NCBI GenBank assembly: GCA_044226015.1
Contig: JBGAHS010000007.1
Location: 448,001-512,000 of the forward strand
Source: Candidatus Obscuribacteraceae bacterium
GTDB taxonomy: Bacteria > Cyanobacteriota > Vampirovibrionia > Obscuribacterales > Obscuribacteraceae
Direction: 5' to 3'
DNA length: 64,000 nucleotides
In this document: piece after piece, positions 30,805 to 49,175 of the stretch
How the letters are laid out: each line of letters opens with the position of its first letter
How positions within the stretch are numbered: the stretch's first letter is position 1
Notes under the pieces: generated by a model
Seen by the model: the letters and a program-made list of their open reading frames with translations, nothing else
Told to the model about the DNA's origin: nothing
The model's database searches: none
Translations under genes and position numbers: made by a program

Positions 30805-31105
30805 GGCGACCCAGAGCCTCTAATCAACAAATCCCTTTTTCAGAATACGAAGGGTGTCGAACTTGCAAAAGGGTGAAAGCACGCCTGCACAAGGTTTGCG
30901 AAGCTAGCGATCACTTTTAAGCATGTTAAATTGTGGATGAACACATTGTATCGAAAATGCTTGTACCGCCAAGGTTCCTAGGCTTTTTTGCATTTTGGAC
31001 TGTCTGCATGGGGAATTACACCATGGACCGAAGGACAGCTTACATCTATTTTATTTAAGCAGGGTTGGATTATTGCTTCTTTTATTTGTCCGAGGTTGTT
31101 TGCTG

Positions 31106-32269
31106 GTGAATCATCATGAAATTTTCTCTCCGCTACCGGCGGAGCATGCTCCTGCTGCGTCCGACGCGTTGCGTTCCGATTTTTTTCAGTCGGTAATTGA
31201 CAGAACACTCAAGTCTGGCGCTTCCGCTGCTCCGAGTGATGCAGCACCTATGGATGCACCATCTGCTCCAGGAGCTGTAGCCGCTCCGGTGGAGATGCCG
31301 GCTCCGGTACAAGCCGCTATCGAAAATGGCACACCAATTACATTCAGCAGCTCTGGGGAGAACCAGGCTGCAAACCGTCAACCTGATTATTTTATGACTC
31401 CTCAAGGGCAGCTTGTGAAAAATGAGCTGGCAACGCCGAGCCCCGATGGCAGCATCAATATTGAAATTCAAAGTCCGAAGCAAGACGACAATAAGAGCCT
31501 TCGAGATGCGATTACGCACCAAACTGATATGCAAAAGCAGGCGGCGAAGGAAATGATTCGCCTCTGGCAGAAGAACCATCCTGGGCAGGCGGTGCCGGGC
31601 TGGATGAACGACCTCGCGAATGCTAAACCCAATTTGCCAGATTTTGTTCCGACATCGACACAGAGTGCAAACCCGGCGCCAGCCCCAGAGAATGGTTTTG
31701 TAAATCGTGGTGTCTCAAATGGCATCGGTGGTTTTGCAAATAATGGTGGATTTGATGGAAATGGTATGTTCCGCGGCAACGGCAGCAACGGTGATGGTTC
31801 GCTGAACACTGGAGGAACTGACAGCCATGGCAAGCCGCTAGGTCCTGGTGAAACAGTTCAAGCAAAACAGATTTATGATTACATGACTCAGCAGCATGGT
31901 CTATCGCCTGCGGTTGCTTCGGGAATTTTGGGCAACATGATGACCGAGTCTAGTTTTAAGACAAACGCTTACAACGCTGGTGAAGGTGCTATCGGACTCT
32001 GCCAATGGGAAGGCGGGCGCCGCACTCAGCTAGAGCGCTTCGCAGCATCGGAAGGTAAGCCAGTAACCGACTGGCATGTACAGGTTGACTTCATGATGAA
32101 GGAATTGAAGGGCAGCGAATCTGGTGCGTTTGCTAAATTGCAATCAGCTCAAACGCCGAGAGAGGCAGCGGCTATTTTCGACAAATACTATGAGCGCAGT
32201 TCAGGAGCCGCTCGTGGAGAACGTATGGCCAATGCTGATAACATTTATCAAAAGGTTGCTCAAGCTTAG
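31106..32269 (+). CDS. Protein with C-terminal phage-tail-type lysozyme domain
   Basis: ASGILGNMMTES…GAIGLCQW.GGRR…QVDFMMKEL…F.KYYER; start estimated at GTG 31106. Confidence 0.8.
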   Translation: MNHHEIFSPLPAEHAPAASDALRSDFFQSVIDRTLKSGASAAPSDAAPMDAPSAPGAVAAPVEMPAPVQAAIENGTPITFSSSGENQAANRQPDYFMTPQGQLVKNELATPSPDGSINIEIQSPKQDDNKSLRDAITHQTDMQKQAAKEMIRLWQKNHPGQAVPGWMNDLANAKPNLPDFVPTSTQSANPAPAPENGFVNRGVSNGIGGFANNGGFDGNGMFRGNGSNGDGSLNTGGTDSHGKPLGPGETVQAKQIYDYMTQQHGLSPAVASGILGNMMTESSFKTNAYNAGEGAIGLCQWEGGRRTQLERFAASEGKPVTDWHVQVDFMMKELKGSESGAFAKLQSAQTPREAAAIFDKYYERSSGAARGERMANADNIYQKVAQA

Positions 32270-35139: not shown

Positions 35140-36317
35140 TTCTCGCGTTCTTTATTCTTTAATTGTAGGAGTGCCCCCAGTGCGAGCTTTATCTCCTCAT
35201 CCAGCGGGAATAATTGTGACACAAGCGCCATTTCTACTATTGCTTCATCGAGGCGCTGTGTTTTGGCAAGTTGTAGTGCCAGGGCTCGTTGAATTCTGAT
35301 GTTTTTTGGTCGAAGCATCCTTGAGATTTTGTATTCATTGGCGGCTCTGTCATGGTCTCCAATTTTTATATATAGAACTGCCAGCGCGTTGTGTACATCG
35401 ACATCGTTAGGTGCAAGCAACGCTGCCCTCTGGCAAAATCGAATTGCTTCATCAGTTTTGTCCTGATTAGAAAGCACCCATGCCATTACCATGGTGGCAT
35501 CAGAATAGTTGGGATCTAACTCCAGTGCTCTGGCGATTTCTGCTTTTGCTTCGGTCCACCTTTTTAGAGTGCCGAGAGATTGTCCATATCTAAAATGGAC
35601 GTAAGGGTCATCAGGCGCCGCAGCCACTGCGGCTTCGTATTCTTGAACGGCTAACTCAGCTTTTTCTTGCTGCAAATATGTGTTGGCCAGAACTGTGTGT
35701 GCTAGAGGATATGTCGGGTGCGCCTTTAGAATTTCGCTGCATTCAGCACTTGCTCTCCAGAGATTTCCCTGCATTCTGTAGCATTCCGCAGTGAAGACTT
35801 GGGCTGCAGTAGAATCTGGGCTCAATTTGAAACAGGTCTGATATTGGTTGATGGCATCCTCATAATGTCCGCTCAGCCGATATGCTTGCCCAAGCATGAA
35901 ATGTGCTTCTGAGAAATTAGGGTCCACATTAATGGCTTCATTTAGCTGTGTTATGGCTGAATTGAAGTCAGATAGTGCCACCATTGCTGCGCCCAGTAGA
36001 TAGTAGGAACTCGCGACTTTCGGCTCTTCCTTGCGGCACTCAGATGCTTCCAGGTAAGCGTTGGTAAAATCTCTGTTTTGCAAGTAAATAAAGTAATTCT
36101 CTATTCGCCGAGCCAGTTCGCTTTTTGCGTCAATGCTTTGGGATATTGGTTTTGGTATGAGCGCAACAAGAGTGTAAGAGCTGCTTGGTTTTGATTTGCG
36201 CATCGGCGTTAGTACATGAGCTCTAACAGTGTATGAGCTGTACTGGCAAGTTGCACATACTACCTGGAGAGACAAGCAAAGAATGACCGCGAAGATTAGA
36301 TTAGTTGATTGAGGCAT
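35127..36317 (-). CDS. TPR-repeat protein with N-terminal signal/TM
   Basis: Multiple 34-aa TPR units (e.g. AHFMLGQAYRLSGHYEDAINQY). Confidence 0.85.
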   Translation of the reverse strand: MPQSTNLIFAVILCLSLQVVCATCQYSSYTVRAHVLTPMRKSKPSSSYTLVALIPKPISQSIDAKSELARRIENYFIYLQNRDFTNAYLEASECRKEEPKVASSYYLLGAAMVALSDFNSAITQLNEAINVDPNFSEAHFMLGQAYRLSGHYEDAINQYQTCFKLSPDSTAAQVFTAECYRMQGNLWRASAECSEILKAHPTYPLAHTVLANTYLQQEKAELAVQEYEAAVAAAPDDPYVHFRYGQSLGTLKRWTEAKAEIARALELDPNYSDATMVMAWVLSNQDKTDEAIRFCQRAALLAPNDVDVHNALAVLYIKIGDHDRAANEYKISRMLRPKNIRIQRALALQLAKTQRLDEAIVEMALVSQLFPLDEEIKLALGALLQLKNKERENHIE

Positions 36318-36418
36318 GCCAGGCGCTTTGTGAATTCAAGACTGATTATACAACGATTTAAACTTGCCACAGCTTTACTGTATAATCGTGATGGCTAGGC
36401 TTTCGGGTTATTCGCAAA

Positions 36419-37876
36419 GTGAGATTTACTCCCAGCGCTCTGCTTTTTCGGGCTTATCTAATGCTTTGCGTTCTCAATTTTGTGTTTTCCTGGCTATACG
36501 GATTGTTTTCTCTGTGCTCGCCTGACATTAAGTACTTTCAGAAGGATGTGGCGGCGCAACTAAGCTCTATTGAGCGCCGGCTGGCAGAGGGCGGAGCCAA
36601 CTGGCAAGGACAATTTCAGCCAGAAGGTAAAATTTTTTCCTATGGCTTTTACGGTTTGAGCTTGATTAATATTGCTGTTGAGAGGAGGGCTGACTCTCAA
36701 GCTATTGCCACTACCCTGGCAAAGTTGGAGCTGCTGATTCCTCAACTTGAGACATGTGAAAGCGAATATCCTTTCACTTCTTGTTCCAAGCTGAGCCCTA
36801 AGGGTGGTGTCATAGCTGCTGGAATTACTAATTTGGTACGAGCCGGTTATGTTTTTCTTGGCGGGAAAAATCAAAGGGTCATTGAGTCGTTTCACGGACG
36901 CTCAGCCGCTCTGGCGGCTGCGTTCTCGGAATCGAAATTACCATTCCTTGAGAGCTTTCCCGGGCTGCGCTGGCCGGTGGACAACTGCTGTGCCATCGAA
37001 TCGCTTCGGTATCATGATAATCTGTTTTCCTCTGACTATGCCAGGTTGCCTTCGCAACGTTGGGAACAATGGCTAAGAGCAAATGCCGACACTAGCACCG
37101 GAATGATGATTGCTCAAGTCAGTGCAGATGGGCATACCATTGATGTTCCCAGAGGTTGTGCGCTTTCGTGGACGCTTTCGTTTAGTCCTGGATTTGCTCC
37201 TGAGTATGATAAAGAGCAGTACTCTCGATTTCAAAAATATTGGTTTTTGCCCGTGATGGGTACCCTCGGCATAAGAGAGTGGTCAGAGGGGCAAGAGAAA
37301 TTTTCGAAAATACAGGAGGGGCCAGTCTTGTTCGGAGTTGGCGCTGCAGCAAGCGGACTCGGCATAGCTGCGACCCATGCGCATTCTGATGGACAAGCAT
37401 TTGTCTGTCTCTTGCGTGGATTAGAATCGATTGGCTTTCCCAGCATAAATTTGCAAGGAGAGAAATCCTATTTTGGTCAGCTCTTCTTGCTCGGTGACAT
37501 TCTTGCATTGTGGGGAAAGACCTGTATTGTTTGGGACCGTGCTCAAGATAGTGCTTCCTTCTGGCATGATGCGTCGAGCCTGCCAGATTTTTCAAAGCCT
37601 CTCATTCTCGCTGTATTAATAAGTGTTGTTCTGACTATGTCATGTTTTGCCTATTTCTTTGGGGGCATTCGTCTGTTTCGTTCGAGATTTCAGAGTTTAG
37701 AAAGGCGCGATTGGAAGCTTGCATCAGTTGCATTGCTCGCCATTCTTTCAAACCTTTGCTTTCCTGGCTTCCTTTGGATATGGACTGTCCTGGTCTTGGT
37801 GTGCATTCTGTGGGTGGAAAAGTGGAACGCCACCATCAGGAAATTCTCTTCTTCAAGTTCAGCAGAGCGCACATGA
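36419..37876 (+). CDS. Membrane-anchored hypothetical protein, possibly (alpha/alpha)6 linalool dehydratase-like fold
   Basis: LESFPG..WPVDN, PRGC, IREW and GPV..G.G.AAS motifs; N- and C-terminal TMs. Confidence 0.55.
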   Translation: MRFTPSALLFRAYLMLCVLNFVFSWLYGLFSLCSPDIKYFQKDVAAQLSSIERRLAEGGANWQGQFQPEGKIFSYGFYGLSLINIAVERRADSQAIATTLAKLELLIPQLETCESEYPFTSCSKLSPKGGVIAAGITNLVRAGYVFLGGKNQRVIESFHGRSAALAAAFSESKLPFLESFPGLRWPVDNCCAIESLRYHDNLFSSDYARLPSQRWEQWLRANADTSTGMMIAQVSADGHTIDVPRGCALSWTLSFSPGFAPEYDKEQYSRFQKYWFLPVMGTLGIREWSEGQEKFSKIQEGPVLFGVGAAASGLGIAATHAHSDGQAFVCLLRGLESIGFPSINLQGEKSYFGQLFLLGDILALWGKTCIVWDRAQDSASFWHDASSLPDFSKPLILAVLISVVLTMSCFAYFFGGIRLFRSRFQSLERRDWKLASVALLAILSNLCFPGFLWIWTVLVLVCILWVEKWNATIRKFSSSSSAERT

Positions 37877-37877
37877 G

Positions 37878-38357
37878 CTACTCTGTTTTTGCAATCGCGT
37901 CTTTTGTTGCTATTTCAGGACCATTTGGTTTTACTCTGCAAACAACGTGAGCTAGCCCCGTTATACCCAACCTTTTAGCTGCTGCTTTCGAAAGGTCGAT
38001 TATGCGTTTTCCATGAAAGGGTCCTCTGTCCGTTACTCGCACATTGACGGTGGCTCCTGTATCAGGATTTGTGACTAACAGATGGGTGCCGAAAGGTAGT
38101 GTTCTATGAGCACAGGTGTACTGGTTCGGATCATAAAGGCTTCCCGAAGCAGTGCGGCGTCCTTTGAATCGATCCGCATAAAATGAGGCGATTCCTTTAA
38201 TTGGTGCTCTAAGGGTCTTTGTCAACGTATGTTTGACTTTGTTGGGCATTGATTCTTCGTTTGCAAGGGCATCGCCTGTGGTGCAACATATCAATGCCAA
38301 TGAAAATAATAAGGGGATTGCTTTTTTCATTGTTACTGTGCCCATGTAAGATTCCAT
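37878..38357 (-). CDS. rlpA: RlpA-family lytic transglycosylase
   Basis: GIASFY, TASG, AHRTLPFGT, VTDRGPF and IIDLSKAAA. Confidence 0.9.
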   Translation of the reverse strand: MESYMGTVTMKKAIPLLFSLALICCTTGDALANEESMPNKVKHTLTKTLRAPIKGIASFYADRFKGRRTASGSLYDPNQYTCAHRTLPFGTHLLVTNPDTGATVNVRVTDRGPFHGKRIIDLSKAAAKRLGITGLAHVVCRVKPNGPEIATKDAIAKTE

Positions 38358-38547
38358 CTGAGAGGACGGGCTGAGTCGATGTCAGTTCCCACATATAGCG
38401 CAGCTGAAATCCCCGATATTGCAGACCAAAGCAAGCCTCTCTCAGAAGCGAAAATGCGCCATTACCGTGCCGGGTCGAGGCTAATCGCTGAGTTGAGTCT
38501 GCGATATCGCAGCTCAATAACATTCGCGAGGCGTATTTCTAGATGGT

Positions 38548-40203
38548 CTAGACCTCTTCGGAAATCATTGAAGAGAGTTCGTTGTAGCGCGATTGAAGAA
38601 CCTTCAAGTTCATACTGAAGACAGGGTCCACGAGCTCCTCATTGCGTAACTGGTCAAGCAGCTTTATTGAGTGCTTGATGGAAATGCGCAAACCTTCATT
38701 TATTTCTGAACTACCAACCTCTGCAACTTCATATAACGGAATGCTTGCATCAAGAAGTGAGGCAAGGGTCTCGGCTGCTACGACTTCCGCATCGCTCCAT
38801 CGTTTTGATTGTCCGGCAACTTGCTCTTTCCATGCCTCGAATGATTTCCGCGGGTGCAATTTGTTGGGTGAACTTACTGAAACTGCTTTTTCCGGATTTC
38901 CGCCCCATGTCAGAGTCTGTTTGTATTCTGGGCGGAAAATCAGCAAATAGCCATGCAGCATTTTTATTGCAATTAGACCTGAGGCTTTCTCTTCGTTGCC
39001 CTTGAAGATCTCAAAGGTGGCTGGCAAACGATTGGTAAAAAATATACTCGACCGCTTCTCTTCTCGGAGACTTTGCACCAGGCTCTGGATTGTTGCTGTA
39101 GCAATTATTTCGCCGCACTGTCCCTCAGTATTTCCATCTTCGGAAGCGTAAATCACAGCGCTTGCATCGAATAAACGAAGGGACTTCTCGCCAATCGAAT
39201 CAAAGAGAGAGAGCCTGTTTTTTGACTCTAGAATCTTTTGACCTATGCTGGAAAATTGCGACACCAGTTGTAGTGCATCCTTCTTTATAATGCTGGCAAG
39301 ATGCTCTGAGGCAAATTTGCCTATGAACTCACATACAGAACGAATCCAGTAGTTCGTGTATTTTGCAGTGCTGTGATGACCGGCAATTAGCCCCCATAGA
39401 CGACCATTAACAATAAGCGAAATTGTCAGGCTCGCGCCGACATTCATGTTCTTCAGGTACTCAATGTGAATCGGCGACGCTTGTCTCAAAGCACTAAGAG
39501 TCATATTGATTGGGCGTCCCCTTCCAGCCGAATGTGAGGGAACCAGCGGAATCGATGGACTGTTTACATCAGCAATCAGGCGGGTCCAATTTGCCGTAAA
39601 GAGCTTTCTTGCAGGCTCTGGAATATCGCTGGCCGGGAAATGATTTCCCATGTAACTGTCCATGCCAGGTCTGAGGTCCTCACCGACGACCTCACCATGC
39701 CAATCTTCATGAAATTTATACAGCATGACCCGTTCTAACCCAGTGACCTTTCTGACACAGCGAACAAGTTCTTCCGCAAATTCCTTGACCGTATTTGTTT
39801 TAGATAAAGTTACGATGCATTCCTGAAGTCCAGAAGCAGCGTTGTCTGCATCATGCATGTCTGTTGACTCATCTCTAGGCTCGAGTTCAATAATCATGCA
39901 GCCGTCGCTAATGTGGGCAATTGCGTTTGCTTTGATTTTGCTTCCAACAACTCCAACAGGCACCAGTGCCCTGTCCTTGTTACTCGCAAACGAATTTAGT
40001 GTTTCAAGTTGTCTTTCCGAAAAAAAGGCGGAACAATGTTCGCCAATAATGCTCTCGGTACTCTCTTCCAGCCAATCAGAAATGTTTGCAGAAGTTTGCA
40101 CTACGTACATTGAACCATCAAGTACCAACAAAGCACCGTAACTCTGAATTTCATTTATGTATGCCACCGGCTCTCTGTCACAATTCGACTCGTCTACTTG
40201 CAC
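38548..40203 (-). CDS. Bacteriophytochrome photosensory module (PAS-GAF-PHY) without an output kinase
   Basis: N-terminal NCDREP Cys, RVMLYKF, ASDIP, SPIHIEYL, LWGLI and PRKSF..W. Confidence 0.92.
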   Translation of the reverse strand: MQVDESNCDREPVAYINEIQSYGALLVLDGSMYVVQTSANISDWLEESTESIIGEHCSAFFSERQLETLNSFASNKDRALVPVGVVGSKIKANAIAHISDGCMIIELEPRDESTDMHDADNAASGLQECIVTLSKTNTVKEFAEELVRCVRKVTGLERVMLYKFHEDWHGEVVGEDLRPGMDSYMGNHFPASDIPEPARKLFTANWTRLIADVNSPSIPLVPSHSAGRGRPINMTLSALRQASPIHIEYLKNMNVGASLTISLIVNGRLWGLIAGHHSTAKYTNYWIRSVCEFIGKFASEHLASIIKKDALQLVSQFSSIGQKILESKNRLSLFDSIGEKSLRLFDASAVIYASEDGNTEGQCGEIIATATIQSLVQSLREEKRSSIFFTNRLPATFEIFKGNEEKASGLIAIKMLHGYLLIFRPEYKQTLTWGGNPEKAVSVSSPNKLHPRKSFEAWKEQVAGQSKRWSDAEVVAAETLASLLDASIPLYEVAEVGSSEINEGLRISIKHSIKLLDQLRNEELVDPVFSMNLKVLQSRYNELSSMISEEV

Positions 40204-40206
40204 GCT

Positions 40207-41646
40207 TTACACCTGTTCTTTCTTAATGGGGATTCTGAGTATGAAAGTTGAGCCTTTCCCGTACTCACTTTGGCAAGTCAGTGAACCATTAAGGGCTTTT
40301 GCGAGTTGGCTGCAAATTGATAAACCTAGTCCTGTGCCACCAGGTTGTCTGCCCGTGGCTTTTCCTCCTTGTACGAATGGTTGAAATATAAGGTTCAATT
40401 CGCTCTCTTCAATTCCGATTCCTGAATCGCTAATCGAGAACTGTAAGAACATATCATCGTATGGAACGGCTTTGATGGTGACATTGCCTTTCTCTGTGAA
40501 TTTCAGAGCATTGTGTATCAGGTTCGTGAGTATTTGTCGCACTTTAACCTGGTCACCGGTGTACAAGGGCTCTAGTGCTGGGGAAAGCTCCAAATCAAGT
40601 TGAAGATTCTTTTGCTCAGCCAGAGGTGCCATCTGTGTCTTCACATCATTGAGCATTTCTGAAACAGAGAATTTGTTGTCAGAAATGGTGAACTCACCTC
40701 GTTCAATCTTTGCAAAATCGAGAATTTCATTGACCAGTGCCAGCAAATTTTTTGCAGACTTGAAAATCATCGGTGCTAGTTCTTCGGTCGTTTGAGTATC
40801 TGGAGCCTGACAAAGAAGCTCAGCACCCGATACAATGCCCGAGAGAGGTGTTCGAATTTCATGGCTGACATTTGCAATGAATTGGGAACGCATTTGTACC
40901 GCTTGCTCCGAAACACGGTACATTTTCAACAGCTGCGTAGTAACGGCTTCAAGTGCTGAAGTTCTTTCTTCAACCTTGCGTTCTAGCATTTCTTCATTAA
41001 GCTTTCGTTCGGTCACGTCTCGCAGAATAGCAAGGCAAGCAGGCTTACCGCTCCATTGAATTTCTGTTACCCGCATTTCTGCAATCGAGCGATCTCCCTT
41101 AAGGTTAAGAAGATCAATTTCAGTTATGTCCCCACTCACAGCCGGGTAGCCAAAGTCTTCATTCAATTCGAGTTTATTTTGAAAGAATGCGGTAGCGGCT
41201 GGGTTCATATACAAAAGTTTGCCGTCTTCGTCTATCACGAGTATGCAGTCAGTGCATTTCTCGATAATGTTACGAACCTCTCCATCGCGCTGTCTAAGTG
41301 CTTTGCTGAGATTCTGCCGTTCAGCCAAATCACTTACTCTGGTTTCCAAAGTCTCAATTATGTTCAAAACCGACTCTTTGCTTTCTGTCGATTCCGTGAT
41401 TTTTAGAACAGGAATGTTCTTTCCACCAGTTAGAAGGTCTTTTCTGAGTTCCCATTGCTCACCAATAGCGGTGCTTAGAATGACTGCGTTGTAAGAATTG
41501 CTATCGAGATTTAAGGAGCCGTTGTGAAGCTGCTCTTCCGTGATGACATCGGCCAAAATATTCGCCGTTGCTGATAGCCGATCTCGAATCAGCCGCGCGT
41601 TACGCGCGTCAGCAGTCACTACAATCACTTTGTATGGTGAATTCAT
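40207..41646 (-). CDS. Histidine kinase with degenerate receiver + PAS + HisKA/HATPase
   Basis: VSHEIRTPL, NLIHNALKFT, DSGIGI and GGTGLGL; PAS segment ILVID.DGKLLYMNPAA; receiver-like N-terminus. Confidence 0.88.
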   Translation of the reverse strand: MNSPYKVIVVTADARNARLIRDRLSATANILADVITEEQLHNGSLNLDSNSYNAVILSTAIGEQWELRKDLLTGGKNIPVLKITESTESKESVLNIIETLETRVSDLAERQNLSKALRQRDGEVRNIIEKCTDCILVIDEDGKLLYMNPAATAFFQNKLELNEDFGYPAVSGDITEIDLLNLKGDRSIAEMRVTEIQWSGKPACLAILRDVTERKLNEEMLERKVEERTSALEAVTTQLLKMYRVSEQAVQMRSQFIANVSHEIRTPLSGIVSGAELLCQAPDTQTTEELAPMIFKSAKNLLALVNEILDFAKIERGEFTISDNKFSVSEMLNDVKTQMAPLAEQKNLQLDLELSPALEPLYTGDQVKVRQILTNLIHNALKFTEKGNVTIKAVPYDDMFLQFSISDSGIGIEESELNLIFQPFVQGGKATGRQPGGTGLGLSICSQLAKALNGSLTCQSEYGKGSTFILRIPIKKEQV

Positions 41647-41656
41647 AGTGAGACCC

Positions 41657-43150
41657 TTACTCATCAAACATGTGGTCAAGTCGCGTGAGTTCATTTTGTG
41701 AGTGTTGAACCGGATTACCCGCCAGGATTCCCGTAACATTGAGGAATGGATCGCCGATGTGCATTCCATCATGATCAATGCTGAATTTTCTGATTTGTTT
41801 GTCGTGCATTGAACCTCGCATCTTCAGAACTGTGATGCCTCTCTGCATTTCTCCATTCAACTCAACGTAACGCAATAGAATGATGCTATCCGTGATTGTG
41901 GAAATGTGTGATTCCGTTATCGATGGTCCACCTAACAATGACGGAGTCGTCGAAGTGAGCAAACCTGCAATTTCTTTTTCTTTTAAGAATGAACTCAAAC
42001 TCAACACGAATTCTCTAAATGCCTTCGGCAGTGAGATTCGCTCGAGAGCTGAGAGGCTGTCTACAGCTACGCGGCTGGGCTTGAATTCTTTGATTGATTT
42101 TTGCATGTTATACAGATGTTCTTCGAGACTCGATGTTTCTGGATATTGGCATCGGACGGACAAAAGATTTTTCTGTTCCAATTCTTCAAAGTGCATTCCC
42201 CATCCGGTCGCGTTTCGGAAAAATTGGTCTTTACTTTCTTCAAAAGCGAAGACCATTGCTCTTTCACCTTTTACTGCAGCGCCATTAGCGAAGTGATTTA
42301 CCGTAAGCGATTTGCCTGTTCCGGTAGCTCCTGAAACTAATATGATGGAGTCTCGGAAGAAGCCGCCACCACACATAGAATCGAGCTCATCTACCCCACT
42401 GTGAATTCTCGTTGTGGAAGACCTCTGTGTAAGAGACATTGAAGAGAGTGGGCTAAATGTTAATCCTATGTCCTCGAGAATAGTGAAAGGGCATTCTCCC
42501 TTTTCGTGGTTAGAACCGCGAAACTTCAATATTTCGATTGTGCGCCTTCTTTTCTCCAAATCCAGCGGGTTGCGCAAGAGCACCACGTTGTCTGCGACAA
42601 ACTCCTCCACCCCAAACTGCGAAATGGCTCCGTAATCACTATTGCGTTCTGCTGTGACTATGGAAGTGACCCCGAGCTTTTTCAGCGCTGACACAATAGA
42701 GAAGAGCTCGCGTCTGACGAGCTGATTATTGTCCAGCTGTGAAAACAAAGCTCCCAGGGAATCAAAAGATAGTCTGGTGGCGTTAACTTCTTGTACCGCG
42801 TATTTTATTCGCGCGATAATTGCGGAGAGTTCAAAGTCACCGCTGATGTGGGTTTCCTCATCTAAGATTGGCGATATATCCACAAACGCCCACCTCTTTT
42901 CCTCTTCCCACTTCTTAATATCCCATCCGAAGGCGGCGAGATTATCGCGAATATCTTCAGGCGTCTCTTCAAATGTGACGAAAACACCATTCTCGTTAAA
43001 TCGTTCAATTCCCATAGCTAGAAACTGCGCAGCAAAAAGTGTCTTGGCACTGCCCGCAGTGCCTGCAACAAGAGTGGCTCTGTTGCGCGGCAAACCGCCA
43101 TGCGAAATATGATCAAAGCCCTCAATACCAGTCTTGAGTTTATTCGTCAT
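41657..43150 (-). CDS. kaiC: Circadian clock ATPase/autokinase KaiC
   Basis: Two RecA domains (GTAGSAKT, GATGTGKS), FEE catalytic pairs, ITESHISTITD phospho-site loop and KMRGS.HDK. Confidence 0.95.
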   Translation of the reverse strand: MTNKLKTGIEGFDHISHGGLPRNRATLVAGTAGSAKTLFAAQFLAMGIERFNENGVFVTFEETPEDIRDNLAAFGWDIKKWEEEKRWAFVDISPILDEETHISGDFELSAIIARIKYAVQEVNATRLSFDSLGALFSQLDNNQLVRRELFSIVSALKKLGVTSIVTAERNSDYGAISQFGVEEFVADNVVLLRNPLDLEKRRRTIEILKFRGSNHEKGECPFTILEDIGLTFSPLSSMSLTQRSSTTRIHSGVDELDSMCGGGFFRDSIILVSGATGTGKSLTVNHFANGAAVKGERAMVFAFEESKDQFFRNATGWGMHFEELEQKNLLSVRCQYPETSSLEEHLYNMQKSIKEFKPSRVAVDSLSALERISLPKAFREFVLSLSSFLKEKEIAGLLTSTTPSLLGGPSITESHISTITDSIILLRYVELNGEMQRGITVLKMRGSMHDKQIRKFSIDHDGMHIGDPFLNVTGILAGNPVQHSQNELTRLDHMFDE

Positions 43151-43158
43151 TCAGCACC

Positions 43159-43494
43159 CTATGAATTTCCTGTACCATCATTTTCAGAGCAAAGGTCTAG
43201 CCTCTGTCTGATGAAATCCGTATCTCTGAGGTCACCAACTATTCGCCGCTTCGGTAGAGGTAGTGTTCTAACCAGCATTGGAGTAGCAAAAACCTTTTCC
43301 TTTTCGGCAATGTCCGGATTTTGAATTATGTCTACGATTTCGAACTCTATTGAGTCGCCATCGCAAATTGTTTTTAGATGATCAATAGCCCGGGCCGTCC
43401 GACTGGACGTCCCCGCGACATAAAGAATTAAGCGCTTTTTGCCTACCATAATCATCAGGACACTTTTCCAAATATCCGCTAAATAGTACTCCAT
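43159..43494 (-). CDS. kaiB: KaiB (start possibly 43449)
   Basis: LYVAG, EIVDI..NP..AE, ATPML…P.P.RRIVGDL. Confidence 0.93.
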   Translation of the reverse strand: MEYYLADIWKSVLMIMVGKKRLILYVAGTSSRTARAIDHLKTICDGDSIEFEIVDIIQNPDIAEKEKVFATPMLVRTLPLPKRRIVGDLRDTDFIRQRLDLCSENDGTGNS

Positions 43495-43622
43495 CGTTGA
43501 TGCAATTTTTTTGAATCGGTTCCGACTCTTTTATGCGTTTTTCATAAAACTTCGGCTAAGTTACTACAATCTATTAATAGGTAATTCTGATTGCTAAAAT
43601 TGAATAGTCTGAGCCCAAGCCA

Positions 43623-44432
43623 TTGATGTTTAAAGAAAACGATTCCTACCAACTCTCAGTTTTAATAGTTGATTCTGATTCATCAGATAGACGAGCGATT
43701 GTGCGCACCCTCGCTCAACTTGCGGATGAAGTCCAAATCACTGAGGGACAAACATGTCGTGAAGCCTATGAGCTACTCGTGTCAAAGCAATTCGACATTG
43801 CGTTAATTTGCCAGGACCTTCCAGATGAACTTGGTACCGATCTGCTCGTGCGTTTGAAAGATGAAGGACGATTAGATGCGCCTGTGATCTTGCTAACAAG
43901 TACAGATGACATTGGTGAGGAAGTTATTCGGCTAGGTGCCCATGAATTCATCAGCAAGCAGTCTCGAAGTTTACAGCAGTTCAAGAAATCCATTCGATAC
44001 GCTATTGAGAGGCACCGTCTGTGGCGCGAATTGGTGGAAACTAAATTGCGTTCCGCCAGAGAACGCGAGCTAAGCTCGTTTGAAGCACCTGACTCGAATG
44101 TAACCGTTCAACCTGATCAGAATGCGTTTGAAGAACAGTTTGATAATCTTGTCTCAGAGTATTCGCGAATATTTGAGGAATTTTCGTTGGATAATTCGTA
44201 CAAGAGAGAGCTGAAGGCATCGGCAGCTCTGGTACGAGCGTTCGCGGAGCGAGTAGGGCAAATTGGCTTGGGTCCAAAAGAACTTGTGAGTATACATAGG
44301 AAATATTTGCAGCAAGCTGTAGAAGGCAAATCTTCTTTGCGTGAACAATCGTTGATGAATGAGACGCGCTTTTTTCTACTTCAATTAATGGGAGAGTTGC
44401 TTCTGTATTATCGTGATCGCAAGAAGGACTAG
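43623..44432 (+). CDS. KaiA3-like protein: (pseudo)receiver + KaiA C-terminal-like helical domain
   Basis: N-terminal receiver fold. The C-terminal Y..I…F.E…..ELVSIH…NETRFFLLQLMGELLLYYR parallels KaiA's VVEIH…DYRLTLIDVIAHLCEMYR. Divergent from kaiBC. Confidence 0.75.
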   Translation: MMFKENDSYQLSVLIVDSDSSDRRAIVRTLAQLADEVQITEGQTCREAYELLVSKQFDIALICQDLPDELGTDLLVRLKDEGRLDAPVILLTSTDDIGEEVIRLGAHEFISKQSRSLQQFKKSIRYAIERHRLWRELVETKLRSARERELSSFEAPDSNVTVQPDQNAFEEQFDNLVSEYSRIFEEFSLDNSYKRELKASAALVRAFAERVGQIGLGPKELVSIHRKYLQQAVEGKSSLREQSLMNETRFFLLQLMGELLLYYRDRKKD

Positions 44433-44524
44433 CCGGAGTGTTGAACAAGCTGTTTTTGTTCCTGAAGTGAAATTTCTTGCAAGCAAGGTATGCTGTCCAA
44501 AAGTAACTGAGCAGTAGCCGCGGC

Positions 44525-45733
44525 TTGAAATCCGTTGCAGAAATTGGTACAACCACGTTTTGCCACTCGAGAGGCTGGGACCCGACTTTGAACATTTTCA
44601 AGATATGTTTGCTTTCCGCATCGATTCTATTTCTGCAAAATCAAGTTCCTTCATGGGCCGATGACACGTCTCCTGATGCTCCCGCCTCCGCAGAGAATGG
44701 CCCGCCGACTACGACAGATTCGAGTTCCATGAACCCGAATGAGCAAAATTCCGATGATGCCACTGCCGCTGCGTCTGCCCCAGATAATCCGGCTGATGTT
44801 GCGGCTTACTCTGGCGACCTGGGAACTTTAGAGAACCAGTTGTTTCACGCTAATTTTGCCTCTGAATCGATGCAATCGAGGCTTGATAGAATTGAGCGGT
44901 TAATTTATGGTACTGCTAAGAGTGGCACAGTAGCTGAGCGAATGAAAGAACTGCTCACTGATGTTCACATGCAGGCTCCGACTGCGAGCCCGCCTGCAAG
45001 CTCAGGGCCTGTCGCTGCTGCCCCCAGCTCAGCACCTGACGCCCCGTCTCAGAACACCCAGAATTACGAGACACAGTCCGAACAGCCGGAAAGTTCTCAA
45101 GGTAGCCAGTCTTATTATTATCCGTCCCAGAATGCTGCCGCTGGAGCCAATGGCTATCAAAACAGTGCTCAGGCTAATTCTATGACTGGGCAAGCCACTA
45201 TCAAGGGACCGCAAAAATCCTCATCTCTAAAGGCTGAAGTTTCGGCTATGGAAATGCAGGTATATCAAAAGACTTACAATGACAGTCTTAACAGTCGTGT
45301 CGCGCGCCTGGAACAAACAGTTTTCGCCAATCAGCCGCCCCAGCATTTTTCATCCTTACCGCTTCGAGTCAACAATTTGGCTTCTGCACTGCAACCGGCT
45401 TTTGCTCATCCTCAAAATCTATATGAAAGCACTCCTGTGCTGGCGACTTCCAAAGAATCAAAAAAGAGCGATGAAGAGAAGCAAAAGAATGGACATCCTT
45501 TCTTAAAGAAGTTGGGGGCTGAGTTAGCCAGGGGCGCTATGATGGCTGGTTCAATGGCTGGAAGCATGGCTGTATCAAGTATGATGAACGGTGGCTATAG
45601 CAATGGCTATGGTGGCTATGGCGGCGGCTATGGTGGCTACGGTGGCGGTTATGGAAACTACGGTGGCTATGGCGGTTACCCTCCGTTTGGCGGCGTGAGC
45701 AATTTTTCAGGACTGGCAGGAATGCATTTCTAA
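44525..45733 (+). CDS. Secreted protein with repeated helical motif and Gly/Tyr-rich tail
   Basis: Signal peptide (…PSWA); LE..LF…SRLDRIE motif twice; C-terminal (GGY)n. Confidence 0.7.
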   Translation: MKSVAEIGTTTFCHSRGWDPTLNIFKICLLSASILFLQNQVPSWADDTSPDAPASAENGPPTTTDSSSMNPNEQNSDDATAAASAPDNPADVAAYSGDLGTLENQLFHANFASESMQSRLDRIERLIYGTAKSGTVAERMKELLTDVHMQAPTASPPASSGPVAAAPSSAPDAPSQNTQNYETQSEQPESSQGSQSYYYPSQNAAAGANGYQNSAQANSMTGQATIKGPQKSSSLKAEVSAMEMQVYQKTYNDSLNSRVARLEQTVFANQPPQHFSSLPLRVNNLASALQPAFAHPQNLYESTPVLATSKESKKSDEEKQKNGHPFLKKLGAELARGAMMAGSMAGSMAVSSMMNGGYSNGYGGYGGGYGGYGGGYGNYGGYGGYPPFGGVSNFSGLAGMHF

Positions 45734-45794
45734 AAGCTTGCTAGATTTTCATACGCCACCCACCTAATTTTCTTAGCGTCTGTCTATTTGCTTG

Positions 45795-45822
45795 GGGACA
45801 TTTTAGGGACAAAGTAGGGACA
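45795..45822 (+). promoter_or_regulatory. Three phased GGGACA direct repeats (11-bp period)
   Basis: GGGACA at 45795, 45806 and 45817, upstream of the TPR-tad cluster. Confidence 0.4.
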
Positions 45823-45878
45823 AGCTCGGCTCGTAGCTTCGATAACCTTTAAGCAGGTTAGTTAAGTGAGTTACGAAC

Positions 45879-46427
45879 ATGAATCTCAGGTCCACAACTT
45901 TAGCTTTTATTTTGAGTGCTCTGTCTTTGGCACCAGCACTTGCCTCAGGACAGGAATTTTGCCAGGCTGCTGTGATTTCTAATTTGGAAGCATGCATCCG
46001 AAAGAATCCGACCGATCTTCAAATGCGAAGACAATATGTACTCGAACTGGTCAAAGTCGGTAAGGCCAGGCAGGCTTCTGCTGAAATGGATGGGCTAATA
46101 AGAGCTGGACTTCGCAGCTCGGATGATTTTCGCTTGCTGGCTGATTGTTGCCGTTTTAGTGGCGAGCAGAGTAAAGCGATTCGCTACTACCAGGAGAGTC
46201 TGAGTCTGAATGCCGCTGATTCTCATGCATCAGCAGGAATGGCATTGAGCTACCTGTTAGCTGGTCAATCGCAAATTGCTTTGAAGGTTTGCAAAGATGC
46301 TCTTCCTCACTCGGTTGAAACTCAGGGACGTCGTGATTTGTTGAACGCTATGTCAAAAATAAATGAGTTTCAAAGAGAACGGACCATTGCTAAGCAGCCA
46401 AACAAGGCTGATGGTGTCAGTTTCTAG
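45879..46427 (+). CDS. Secreted TPR protein
   Basis: Signal peptide plus TPR-like helices. Confidence 0.7.
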   Translation: MNLRSTTLAFILSALSLAPALASGQEFCQAAVISNLEACIRKNPTDLQMRRQYVLELVKVGKARQASAEMDGLIRAGLRSSDDFRLLADCCRFSGEQSKAIRYYQESLSLNAADSHASAGMALSYLLAGQSQIALKVCKDALPHSVETQGRRDLLNAMSKINEFQRERTIAKQPNKADGVSF

Positions 46428-46470
46428 GTCGTCTAATAGTTTCCGGGTCTAATAAGTAGGAGTTTGAAAA

Positions 46471-48090
46471 ATGATTGCTGTTACGCAAAAGCAAAGAAGT
46501 GAAAGAGGGCAAGCCGTCGCGCTTCCTATGCTGATGTTAGGGCTGATGGTGGTAATGGTTGTTGGCATGTTTTCGTTTGAGTTGGCCAGAACTGCGGTGG
46601 CTAGAGAGCAGCTTCGCACAGCCACCGAGGCGGCAGCACTTGCCGGAGCCGCCACCCTGGCTGGTTCGCCATCCACTGATATTTCCATTTCGCAGAAGAA
46701 TGCAATTTCGGCTGCCAAAGCGATGTTCAAGCAAAATGAAATCTTTGGTACTTCGTTAAAAAATACCACCGAAGGTTCAAGCAAGTTGCAAGCTGAACAA
46801 GCGAATTTGACTTTTCAATTCATAGACCCACAGAACAATAATGCACCAGTTGCCGCAGGTGACCCAAAGGGAAAAGCTCTCGAAGTGAAATCGGCTTATG
46901 GACTGCCATCAGTGGCTGGAAAGTTGATCGGATTGGGTAATGCAACTCTCCCTCTCGAATCAAGAGCCACCGGTGGCGTCGGGCAGCTCGACGTTGTGTT
47001 CTGTTTTGATTGTTCTGGTTCAATGAGATTTCACACTTTCACAACATCAGTTAAGAGAACATGGAATGCGACTACCGGAAAGATTGATTATGTCGAAACT
47101 TCGCATACCAGTTATAGTCCGAGTGGTGGCATGGAGCCACAACAACTTTACTCGTTAAACGCAGCGCTTCGTGGCGAAAACGATAATGCTAAACCTGGTA
47201 ATTTTCCTCCTGGAGTTGCAACAGACGATGGTTTCACCGATCAGGTCGTTAACTTCAATGAGCAAAACAGCTTTTCGAGTACATCTGAAGGTGGTTTTGA
47301 TTTCCCTAATGTGGCGGTTCTTGTCGAAGCTTCGAGGGGAAATCTTGAGAGCGATGCCGTTTTTCAATCCAGCGGTGCCAACACAACCCTTCGTGGAATA
47401 GTCACACCAAAAGCCGGTTACCAGGCTAAGTATTTCGAATTGGCTCGCAAGCACACGCATCCATGGGCAGAGGCTGAGTCTGCTGCACAAGAGTTCTTTT
47501 CTCTGATGAGCAATAACACCAGAGCTCATTTTGGTCTGGTGGCATTTAACCAGGCTGCTGGTCAAAACGAACAAACAAAATTTAATGACATGCGTGTCGG
47601 ATCTGGCTATCCACAAGGTGGCGCTAAAGATTTCCCCTTGCCTGCAATCTCGTTGAAACCTGAGCAAGATAAAACAAATGCTAATGAAGTAAAGGCTGCA
47701 GTCGGAACCCTTGTTCCAGACGGTAATACCAATATTGGTGCCTCGATAGAAAGAGCAAATAGAATGTTTGAAGATAAGACAAGCCGTCCTAATGCGAAGC
47801 GCGCAATCGTATTATTTACAGATGGAACTCCATCACAAGGACAACCTCTAAGTGGAGACCCTCTACAAAATTGCCGACTAGCTGCTCAGCAGTCAAAACA
47901 AAAGGGCGTTGCGATTTACTCTGTTGGTTTAGCGCTTGACCCTTCCGAACTCCAGAGTCAGAAAAGTGTTTTGACAATGATCACCAATACAGCAGGAAAT
48001 GGCGGTCAATTCTTTCAAGTAACCAACGCATCGAATTTGAATAGAGCGTTCGGCGCAATCGCAAGAAATCTAACCCAAATTGTTCAGTAG
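46471..48090 (+). CDS. TadG-like pilus protein with VWA domain
   Basis: RSERGQAV pilin-like N-terminus, L..ATEAAALAGA, DCSGSM MIDAS, TNIG and LFTDG. Confidence 0.82.
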   Translation: MIAVTQKQRSERGQAVALPMLMLGLMVVMVVGMFSFELARTAVAREQLRTATEAAALAGAATLAGSPSTDISISQKNAISAAKAMFKQNEIFGTSLKNTTEGSSKLQAEQANLTFQFIDPQNNNAPVAAGDPKGKALEVKSAYGLPSVAGKLIGLGNATLPLESRATGGVGQLDVVFCFDCSGSMRFHTFTTSVKRTWNATTGKIDYVETSHTSYSPSGGMEPQQLYSLNAALRGENDNAKPGNFPPGVATDDGFTDQVVNFNEQNSFSSTSEGGFDFPNVAVLVEASRGNLESDAVFQSSGANTTLRGIVTPKAGYQAKYFELARKHTHPWAEAESAAQEFFSLMSNNTRAHFGLVAFNQAAGQNEQTKFNDMRVGSGYPQGGAKDFPLPAISLKPEQDKTNANEVKAAVGTLVPDGNTNIGASIERANRMFEDKTSRPNAKRAIVLFTDGTPSQGQPLSGDPLQNCRLAAQQSKQKGVAIYSVGLALDPSELQSQKSVLTMITNTAGNGGQFFQVTNASNLNRAFGAIARNLTQIVQ

Positions 48091-48118
48091 TTTGAAATAC
48101 ACCAAAAGGAATTACAAA

Positions 48119-48646
48119 ATGTTCAGTCGCAAGAGAAATTCAAAAGGGAGTTCGATTCTGGAATTGCCAGCAGCATTGTGGTTAACATTGGTTGTCTTCC
48201 TATTGCCCCTCATGTCCCTCGCTTCCATAACCTTGCGTTGTACGCTTTTGAATGTGGCAGTTCTAGAGTCGGTTCATGCAGCATCAAAGGCACGGACATT
48301 CGAACAAAGCAGTGACGAGGGTGCTTCCGCTATTCAGTTAGCAGACCAAGCCTTCGAAAGATATGTCAAAGCTTTTCCAGGACTTGATGCGGACAAAGTA
48401 AAGTTGCGCATCGTCAGCACCGATATTAAGTCTGGTGCAATAAGCAGCACTAATGAGAAGCTAAAGAACCCAGCTGACAGTTCTGGTTTTGTGTATCAAG
48501 TCGAAGGTGATTGCACAGGAAAAATTGAGCCCGTGTTTGCCATGAGTCGGGACATACTCGGTGATATTCCGGGACTGTCCTCGGCAATGAAAGTTAGCTT
48601 CAGTGCTAGAGAAATGTGTGAGAACCCCCAGGGGTTAAATCGTTAA
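48119..48646 (+). CDS. TadE-like pseudopilin
   Basis: RNSKG/SSILE followed by a hydrophobic helix; AAGGA SD. Confidence 0.7.
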   Translation: MFSRKRNSKGSSILELPAALWLTLVVFLLPLMSLASITLRCTLLNVAVLESVHAASKARTFEQSSDEGASAIQLADQAFERYVKAFPGLDADKVKLRIVSTDIKSGAISSTNEKLKNPADSSGFVYQVEGDCTGKIEPVFAMSRDILGDIPGLSSAMKVSFSAREMCENPQGLNR

Positions 48647-48704
48647 AAGAATGACTGATTGTATTCGAAAGAGTTTTGGAAAAAAGATTGAAAGGAATTT
48701 TGAA

Positions 48705-49175
48705 ATGAAAAGACGTGTTATGAAAGTGAATCGGAAGAACTCTCGTGGATCTGTTGCGATCGAGATTGCAGCTGGAGCACTTGTTTCGATAGGGTTGATG
48801 GCATTGGCACTCAATGTTTGTTTCGGTATGTTGGCTTATGGCGTCAATGATCGCGCTTGTCGCGAAGCTGCTCGAGCTGCAGCGCAGCAAAGTACACTGG
48901 CTTCAGCCAGCAGCATTGCAAAATACGTTGTGAATGGCTTCAATCAGAATAACTCATACATGAATAAAATTCAGGTTACACGCGTTGTGTTCACCGACTT
49001 CAATGGTCTTCCGCCTGAAGATCAAAGTCCATTTGTTTCTGTCACCACAAGCTCCTCGGTAGCCACACCTGCACCTATCGCTTTCTTCGGTCAAAAAGTG
49101 TTTGGCGAATCGATTCCTGTTCAGAAGACTTATACGTTTCCAATCGTTCGTCTGAATGTAAACACCAACTCCTGA
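48705..49175 (+). CDS. TadE-like pseudopilin
   Basis: SRG/SVAIE, hydrophobic helix and ACREAARAAA. Confidence 0.75.
   Translation: MKRRVMKVNRKNSRGSVAIEIAAGALVSIGLMALALNVCFGMLAYGVNDRACREAARAAAQQSTLASASSIAKYVVNGFNQNNSYMNKIQVTRVVFTDFNGLPPEDQSPFVSVTTSSSVATPAPIAFFGQKVFGESIPVQKTYTFPIVRLNVNTNS

Follow-up and report, generated by a model that had tools for sequence, protein, structure and literature searches.

A bacteriophytochrome gene recurrently linked to KaiA3-KaiB-KaiC3 loci in non-photosynthetic Obscuribacterales

In the genome of a non-photosynthetic bacterium of the order Obscuribacterales, a KaiA3-KaiB-KaiC3 gene set shares a compact cassette with the genes of a histidine kinase (HK) and of a bacteriophytochrome-type photoreceptor (BphP, gene bphP); the tie between phytochrome gene and kai locus, which recurs within the family, is not random. 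The cassette occupies positions 38548-44432 of a 64,000-nt stretch of Candidatus Obscuribacteraceae DNA (the window: positions 448,001-512,000 of contig JBGAHS010000007.1, assembly GCA_044226015.1). The parts, their motifs and the repeated linkage rest on sequence, structure prediction and gene order. What is new, as far as searched, is the repeated, family-specific coupling of phytochrome to kai: searches of the open-access literature (articles without their supplements) brought up no paper that describes a phytochrome gene inside a kai cluster, or kai genes in Obscuribacterales. The Kai core with its kinase is ordinary for the KaiA3 class. The elements, in window coordinates, are the following.

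38548-40203, minus strand: bacteriophytochrome-type photoreceptor, 551 aa; PAS-GAF-PHY (Pfam PAS_2, GAF, PHY) with a conserved tail of ~50 residues and no kinase domain
40207-41646, minus strand: histidine kinase, 479 aa; degenerate receiver, PAS, HisKA and HATPase; candidate output
41657-43150, minus strand: kaiC, KaiC3 type, 497 aa; over the NCBIfam cut-offs for circ_KaiC and PRK09302
43159-43494, minus strand: kaiB; longest open reading frame (ORF) 111 aa; Pfam KaiB, E 1.4e-18
43495-43622, no strand: spacer that separates the divergent kaiB and kaiA3 genes; a phytochrome-kinase gene or its remnant lies here, upstream of kaiA3, in sister genomes
43623-44432, plus strand: kaiA3-like, 268-269 aa; pseudo-receiver (Cys63), long helix and KaiA-type four-helix bundle (residues ~166-268)

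The kaiB, kaiC, HK and bphP genes are co-oriented and separated by gaps of 8, 10 and 3 nt; these gaps, and the five ORFs proposed in an initial annotation made from the letters of the DNA, are reproduced. The gene order is not an artefact of assembly, since one 20,910-nt contig of metagenome run X2 (from a 2016 study) covers 36500-46000, with 39 letters differing; a single contig of run X1 likewise covers 36913-46000, both runs being possible sources of the window DNA.

The favoured reading, held tentatively and a little short of an even chance, is that light acting through the phytochrome sets KaiA3 (by phosphotransfer in two relatives, G076 and G228, and by binding in the lineage of the window), that KaiA3 and KaiB cycle KaiC, that the kinase reports, and that the timer is reset by light and probably damped. 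(G000 is the host of the window; other G numbers are sampled relatives.) The phytochrome would bind biliverdin at Cys8, with heme oxygenase encoded elsewhere, and photoswitch, and its state would alter the activity or availability of KaiA3: in G076 and G228 a phytochrome-kinase would pass a phosphoryl group to the Asp of KaiA3, and in the window lineage the conserved phytochrome tail would mediate light-dependent binding. KaiA3 would engage the KaiC tail and promote phosphorylation of Ser417/Thr418, with KaiB opposing; the state of KaiC would be read by the pseudo-receiver-PAS kinase, which would phosphorylate a regulator encoded elsewhere. The functional steps (photochemistry, binding, phosphorylation and rhythm) are all ones that we infer.

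Linkage of phytochrome and kai genes

The survey covered 104 genomes of the family and 297 other genomes of the class. KaiC3 occurs in 21 of the former, KaiA3 in 9 and a PHY domain in 51. An intact phytochrome gene lies at the kai locus in four of the nine KaiA3-bearing family genomes (the host, G076, G228 and G148), and remnants of one in two more (G296 and G298). In G076 (L045:11087-14042) and G228 (L049:6791-10017) the gene of a phytochrome-histidine kinase overlaps a co-oriented gene for a KaiA3 with an Asp-bearing receiver (REC), divergent from kaiB-kaiC-HK; on sequence grounds this phytochrome-kinase is a candidate for the KaiA3 input kinase. These two loci are a cleaner system than the window for light-to-KaiA3 phosphotransfer. 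The weakest case of linkage is G148, where the locus has a gene for a short phytochrome and one for a PAS kinase beside kaiA3 (with Glu in the Asp column), kaiB and kaiC; here 2.5 kb separate the phytochrome gene from kaiA3. Broken remnants occupy the same position as the G076 gene in G296 (63%, E 1.5e-9), in G298 (69%, E 1.4e-6, together with a 3' remnant) and in the KaiA3-less G178 (a 5' remnant, 54%, E 1.3e-9), from which kaiA3 has gone as well. Thus all five genomes of the G076 KaiC clade have or had a phytochrome gene. The G298 locus (L047:7743-10541) is itself an eroded cassette: kaiA3 and kaiC are intact, no kinase follows kaiC, kaiB was not found at the locus, and the phytochrome-kinase persists as 5' and 3' remnants. 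No linked phytochrome was found in the KaiA3-bearing G184, G112 and G208, and none that is intact at the 12 KaiC3 loci of KaiA3-less genomes, 9 of which carry a phytochrome elsewhere.

The phytochrome tree separates the window subfamily (support 99), the G076/G228 pair (99) and the G148 protein, from which at least two, possibly three, recruitments of a phytochrome to the kai locus follow. The states of the two proteins are paired, a phytochrome with kinase and a KaiA3 with Asp in G076 and G228 versus a kinase-less phytochrome and an Asp-less KaiA3 in the window, and this pairing, on a basis of two lineages, suggests that phytochrome and KaiA3 are partners. That a photoreceptor has been wired to a Kai timer at least twice in Obscuribacterales, once as a phosphorylating phytochrome-kinase (G076, G228) and once as a kinase-free binder of an Asp-less KaiA3 (window), is conceivable but rather doubtful.

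The subfamily of the window phytochrome is distinct (544-556 aa, nine clusters, the other eight at 38-83% identity; 99 in the SH-like approximate likelihood-ratio test) and was found in none of the other family genomes, where the best match is 39% over partial length. For five of the six close KaiA3 homologues on contigs longer than 6 kb, the longest contig is identical in size to that of a subfamily phytochrome (16834, 68590, 14075, 10321 and 22704 nt), the size-matched proteins being 54-73% (KaiA3 homologues) and 50-83% (phytochromes) identical to those of the window; the sixth, P0011, has no counterpart in size, and the contigs of four more homologues are too short for the cassette.

These data also bear on an unlikely alternative, in which light gates the output and not the timer: the phytochrome would pair with the adjoining HK, and the kinase would integrate the state of KaiC with red light and then signal to a regulator encoded elsewhere. 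Its appeal lies in the placement of bphP directly after the kinase gene, at a 3-nt gap, in the 5448-nt longest-contig size shared by subfamily member P0285 and HK homologue P0289, and in the fact that phytochrome and KaiA3 both lack a phospho-site for input to KaiA3; it sits badly with the sister clade, whose phytochrome is in an operon with kaiA3 on the opposite side of kaiBC from the kinase, and with the absence of an intact phytochrome at all 12 KaiA3-less loci, though 11 of them have a kinase-like gene beside kaiC.

Beyond the family, a phytochrome was looked for and not found in three sets of loci, many of them short: 62 metagenomic KaiC3-type loci, of which only 23 have 3.5 kb on either flank, 4 kaiA3BC loci from two further phyla, and 10 wide loci, cyanobacterial or other; the idea that a phytochrome link is a general feature of KaiA3 was rejected on this count. 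In neither of the two inspected, out of three plasmid KaiC records, is a phytochrome annotated nearby. The core of kaiA3, kaiB, kaiC and kinase is not rare: KaiA3 is present at 41 of the 62 metagenomic loci. Other family members carry KaiC2-type kaiC-kaiB(-kaiB)-kinase clusters (L093 in G220, L094 in G308), and a conserved ORF of ~300 aa with a GVNCR motif (an incomplete LOV motif) lies directly upstream of stand-alone kaiC3 at L117, L119, L121-L123 and L142.

The KaiA3-like protein

The product of 43623-44432 begins with a receiver domain (Pfam Response_reg, E 5.6e-12; predicted local distance difference test score, pLDDT, 91, with five strands and helices), and Foldseek with the full model returns receivers only. 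Pfam KaiA has no match in its C-terminus, where there is a weak match to RsbU_N. The three best structural matches of the C-terminal model among 48,161 chains are KaiA, at Z 12.3 (root-mean-square deviation 2.3, 91 residues aligned), 12.2 and 11.2, with RsbR next at 9.9, on a scale on which values below ~13 can be common among helical bundles; in Foldseek, the first nine rows for this model are KaiA (E 0.07-0.4). A profile of the C-terminal domain containing no cyanobacterial rows recovers the ORFs that precede kaiB3-kaiC3 in cyanobacteria (E 1e-34 to 1e-40); Pfam-KaiA proteins follow (E 6e-4 to 5e-3), and no unrelated protein ranks higher than these; a second profile run against the PDB ranks KaiA first, at a non-significant E of 0.14; and the top cluster of an Atlas search with the C-terminus (0.91) has KaiA on 26% of its members. 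Profiles, model matches and Atlas search agree in marking the predicted domain as KaiA-like.

In the receiver, Cys63 stands in the phospho-Asp column (Asp in 48 of 69 aligned rows), and all 11 KaiA3 proteins P0001-P0011 are without the phospho-Asp. Because Cys63 replaces the phosphorylatable Asp, the gene is classed as KaiA3-like, a pseudo-receiver variant; like a kaiA3 it adjoins kaiB-kaiC, but divergently. The KaiA3-KaiB-KaiC module of the initial annotation holds for the identity of its three members, by profiles, sequence identity and fold. A predicted complex of KaiC CII with two KaiA3 C-termini lends weak support, scoring 0.41 against 0.00 for the best control; in calibration, 116 of 157 solved complexes attained the mark, as did 2 of 215 mismatches, with 18 of the 157 and both mismatches at 0.60 or below. 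Contact agreement is at least 78% and partner pLDDT at least 75, but a similar complex has already been solved and the model may simply echo it.

The KaiA3-type C-terminal domain, which has no Pfam model of its own, occurs in at least 1,749 clusters at 50% identity (P0025-P0162 among them). The 56 longer proteins scanned, of 150 listed, are fusions to REC, PAS, GAF or MEDS, and no PHY domain appears among the top five families listed for each. At two family loci, L050:8586-10363 (G208) and L051:7024-8834 (G112), a KaiA3-type domain occurs without a receiver match (214-225 aa); both loci have two kaiB genes, one with an N-terminal extension of ~120 residues fused to it.

The spread of the domain, present in those 1,749 clusters and fused to REC, PAS, GAF or MEDS in the 56 longer proteins scanned, is one argument for a distinctly unlikely reading of the cassette as a non-clock hub for stress or dark survival, in which KaiC3 would be an ATPase/phosphorylation switch without a part in daily timing and the phytochrome one of several interchangeable sensors, or simply co-regulated. 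A kinase after kaiBC is a general context already described (PMC3164672, in the text accessible), the parts are often lost in the family, and KaiC-beta, the closest solved sequence, did not oscillate. Yet KaiC retains every clock motif together with both phospho-sites and the tail, and presence of the tail motif goes with that of KaiA3; A3B3C3 of Synechocystis cycles at ~24 h, damped, in vitro, as the main text of PMC11372060 describes; and light is the input recruited from three phytochrome lineages.

KaiC and KaiB

KaiC carries every motif that had been claimed for it: Walker A sequences GTAGSAKT (residues 30-37, CI) and GATGTGKS (274-281), EE pairs at 61-62 and 304-305, adjacent phospho-sites Ser417-Thr418 within HISTIT (Ser-Thr codons 41902-41897), and an A-loop region with a short tail terminating NELTRLDHMFDE. 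It has no C-terminal extension of the KaiC2 type. Its scores exceed the NCBIfam cut-offs (circ_KaiC 620.6 versus 546.25 bits; PRK09302 684.7 versus 408), and both the CI Walker A GTAGSAKT and the short tail are common to it and to cyanobacterial KaiC3. Identity is 63-64% to the cyanobacterial second-copy KaiCs of ~505 aa, 51-55% to KaiC1 and 33-40% to KaiC2, and in quick trees it groups with cyanobacterial KaiC3 (branch support 81 when KaiC2 is in the tree and 100 when KaiC1 is the sole comparison), the KaiC1/2/3 labels being based on typical lengths and neighbours, with KaiA upstream of KaiC1 verified in two loci. The phylogenetic check proposed initially thus places the protein as KaiC3 type, apart from KaiC1 and KaiC2. 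Its best PDB match is ancestral KaiC-beta (665 bits, versus 575 for S. elongatus KaiC, a KaiC1, and 324 for KaiC2). Judged by eye, the tail motif E-x-x-R-x-x-x-x-F is present in 9 of 9 KaiA3-bearing family members and absent from 10 of 12 without KaiA3, 9 of those 10 probably forming one clade. For kaiB, alignment points to ATG 43449 as the probable start (96 aa); the protein falls below the NCBIfam KaiB equivalog cut-offs.

The reading of the initial annotation, a circadian oscillator that would sustain itself and take its entrainment straight from red/far-red light, now seems very unlikely. The A-B-C set is complete, with its motifs intact, and is the sole Kai set found in the genome (one KaiA3-like protein, one KaiB and one full KaiC, of KaiC3 type); moreover, KaiC3 phosphorylation in Synechocystis cells is described as high-amplitude and free-running in the main text of PMC11372060. 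In vitro, however, KaiA3-KaiB3-KaiC3 of Synechocystis sp. PCC 6803 gives damped, low-amplitude cycling (Köbler et al. 2024, PMC11372060), and its rhythm in vivo runs alongside KaiA1B1C1, which was not found in the host genome (92.2% complete); there is no SasA over the cut-off in that genome. As PMC12081879 presents its ancestral reconstructions, sustained cycling arose on the KaiC1 branch, and reconstructed KaiC-beta did not oscillate with the KaiA1-type KaiA and KaiB partners tried. The missing KaiA1B1C1, the damping of the Synechocystis set in vitro and the silence of KaiC-beta together make a damped or hourglass timer, needing a daily light reset, the most likely form of the system by analogy.

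The phytochrome and the histidine kinase

Biliverdin-type bacteriophytochromes have a PAS-GAF-PHY core, an N-terminal Cys, a DIP motif, the GAF His, a PRxSF tongue and no Cys before the GAF His. The window protein is of this type by its motifs, keeping Cys8, PASDIP (D193), His246 and PRKSF; it has neither a HisKA nor a HATPase domain, and hence not the C-terminal kinase of a canonical BphP. MAFFT alignments had hinted that its tail might be a dead dimerization and histidine phosphotransfer (DHp) domain; profile tests rejected this candidate, giving a match at the DHp for 0 of 111 phytochromes that bear a kinase and an hhalign probability of 0.1. An Atlas search with the tail found no match, which shows nothing either way. 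The host has a second kinase-less phytochrome (L035:7513-9012, contig C6; 499 aa) that ends directly after PHY, and output-less phytochromes of ~500 aa are present in many family genomes.

For the HK, ATG 41646 is the best choice of start and gives 479 aa (close homologues, 477-481 aa). Its N-terminal domain aligns with receivers but is degenerate, with Ser in the Asp position; HisKA keeps its His (His262), and the N, G1, F and G2 boxes of the HATPase are intact. It is not a SasA, the PRK09303 score being 120.6 against a cut-off of 342 bits and the N-terminus receiver-like. A kinase follows kaiC in most related loci. As the sequences read, the cassette thus joins an active-looking kinase without a phospho-acceptor to a photoreceptor without an enzyme. 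Light input in the window could not be ordinary phosphotransfer, given a phytochrome without a kinase domain and Cys63 in the KaiA3 receiver, and the target of the HK would lie elsewhere, since the cassette holds no phosphorylatable receiver. On both counts the self-contained input-oscillator-output cassette of the initial annotation is not supported.

The host and its habitat

The host genome (8.19 Mb, 13 contigs, 92.2% complete, 3.04% contaminated) yields no match to Photo_RC, PsaA/B, PSII or RuBisCO_large, for each of which a Synechococcus control was positive. This makes the host a non-photosynthetic representative of the Obscuribacterales, in the class once named Melainabacteria, as had been surmised; genomes with canonical kaiA-kaiB-kaiC are present in the phylum sample. 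A single heme oxygenase gene lies away from the cassette, and no bilin reductase was found in the genome. RpaB is above its cut-off. The genome also encodes a blue-light system, a histidine kinase with a LOV motif (GQNCRFLQ; L219, G000:C4:258447-259577) and an adjoining response regulator; a rhodopsin search of the genome was blank, with a positive control that also gave no signal. The metagenomes that contain cassette DNA come from bioreactors, activated sludge and wastewater, and there are no RNA datasets among those listed. From such habitats the suggestion in the initial annotation of a predator that tracks phototroph rhythms gains no support.

Points against a light-set KaiA3

The favoured reading, in which light sets KaiA3, has a good deal to contend with. 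The habitat on record, bioreactor and sludge, weighs against it, as does the failure of the dead-DHp idea, which leaves the route from phytochrome to KaiA3 without an explanation. In the window bphP follows the kinase gene and not kaiA3, so the partner of the phytochrome may be the kinase. G184, a genome of the same genus and the closest relative to share the kaiA3|kaiB-kaiC-HK layout (its KaiC is 78% identical), lacks a phytochrome at 91% completeness, and the phytochrome has been lost in 3 of the 5 sister-clade genomes; both argue that light input is dispensable. As to the statistics, the Fisher test on linkage (4 of 5 versus 0 of 9, p 0.005) is overstated, kin not being independent; several of the KaiA3-less loci are on short contigs (G108, G151, G196 and G274); and the contig-size match is indirect, co-location being read from size and not from DNA or gene order. 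Finally, in Pseudomonas syringae, BphP1-dependent light anticipation is independent of kaiC, as described in the accessible text of PMC10515139.

Comparison with known systems

The closest counterpart is Synechocystis A3B3C3, which shares with the window a receiver joined to a KaiA four-helix bundle, encoded beside kaiB and a KaiC3; the window differs in its non-phototrophic host without KaiA1B1C1, in a divergent and Asp-less kaiA3 and in the kinase and phytochrome of its operon. According to the main text of Köbler et al. (2024, PMC11372060), the KaiA3 receiver Asp is kept in most members, with Pleurocapsa and Microcystis as exceptions, and which kinase is cognate to KaiA3 has still to be established; that text lists five non-cyanobacterial genera and has no word beginning with "phytochrome" and no mention of "Melainabacteria" or "Vampirovibri". 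A PAS kinase directly after kaiBC is a feature shared with the clusters of De Luca et al. 2011 (PMC3164672) and with Bradyrhizobium BRADO1478-1481 (PMC3899966); unlike the window, those clusters, as presented in the accessible portions of the two papers, have neither photoreceptor nor KaiA-like gene, and the phytochrome tags of Ramlibacter lie far from kaiC. In Myxococcus macrosporus a BphP with PAS-GAF-PHY and N-terminal Cys likewise occurs in a non-photosynthetic host with KaiC homologues, and a link to rhythm has been proposed (PMC11832031); its operon is heme oxygenase-BphP-response regulator-HK, with no kai gene among the four and no KaiA reported in the text available. In a review (PMC6627678), bacteriophytochrome is put forward as a possible route by which light could reach the clocks of non-photosynthetic bacteria. 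The proposed window timer would resemble the Rhodobacter KaiB2C2 hourglass (PDB 8DB3/8DBA/8FWI) in needing a daily external reset, as PMC11372060 summarises that system, but that system is of KaiC2 type, has no KaiA, bears a long C-terminal extension and is reset by ATP/ADP. Canonical bphO-bphP-response regulator operons differ as well: the window phytochrome is kinase-less and has kai neighbours and no adjoining heme oxygenase.

CikA is a phytochrome-related protein that acts on the Kai clock. Unlike CikA, the window protein is a full knotted-type PAS-GAF-PHY module encoded in a kai operon. S. elongatus CikA senses quinone redox and not light, and the role of the chromophore-binding Synechocystis CikA is described as unclear (main text of PMC11372060).

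Origin of the locus

KaiC3 is patchy, occurring in 21 of 104 family genomes and in 1 of 297 other genomes of the class. A single clade of family and cyanobacterial KaiC3 is rejected (approximately unbiased test, p-AU 0.003), a result that may be driven by row L135, a metagenomic KaiC of unknown taxon that is sister to cyanobacterial KaiC3; with that caveat, vertical descent with cyanobacterial KaiC3 was set aside. The data do not reject a single KaiC3 origin within the class (p 0.44). Judged from these sequences, horizontal gain with frequent loss is more likely than inheritance from an ancestor shared with phototrophs, and there is accordingly little to learn from the locus about how the cyanobacterial clock arose; the bearing on clock evolution that the initial annotation expected has not materialized, KaiC3 being patchy and not recovered as sister to cyanobacterial KaiC3.

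Other features of the window

Rfam has no match within 36000-47000. The promoter scan predicts 6 against 9.1 expected, the divergent region included, and so is not above chance; the terminator scan predicts 11 against 6.6 +/- 2.8 expected, and neither scan is informative. No clear island signal was found, the G+C content of the cassette being 43-47% and that of the contig 47%. Immediately downstream of the phytochrome gene is an RlpA-like lytic transglycosylase gene (37878-38357), and further out are a secreted-looking protein with a phage-tail-lysozyme domain (30995-32269) and, within 46471-49175, a Tad/VWA protein (Pfam Tad and VWA) and, after it, two short ORFs that to the eye resemble TadE.

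Significance

How Kai systems beyond the S. elongatus model receive their time cues is the question on which this locus bears. Kai systems and phytochromes are now placed in the Obscuribacterales lineage, of which two early genome papers mention rpaA, rpaB and nblS and, in their accessible text, no kai genes (PMC3787301, PMC4040986). The locus and its relatives offer a small set of proteins with which to ask whether red light alters KaiC phosphorylation through KaiA3. If a photoreceptor has indeed been wired to the timer at least twice, the missing input kinase of KaiA3 would be supplied, and a light-switchable Kai input would help engineered clocks; a non-photosynthetic sister lineage of the cyanobacteria would then have, in four to five proteins, a Kai system that is reset by photons and not by metabolism.

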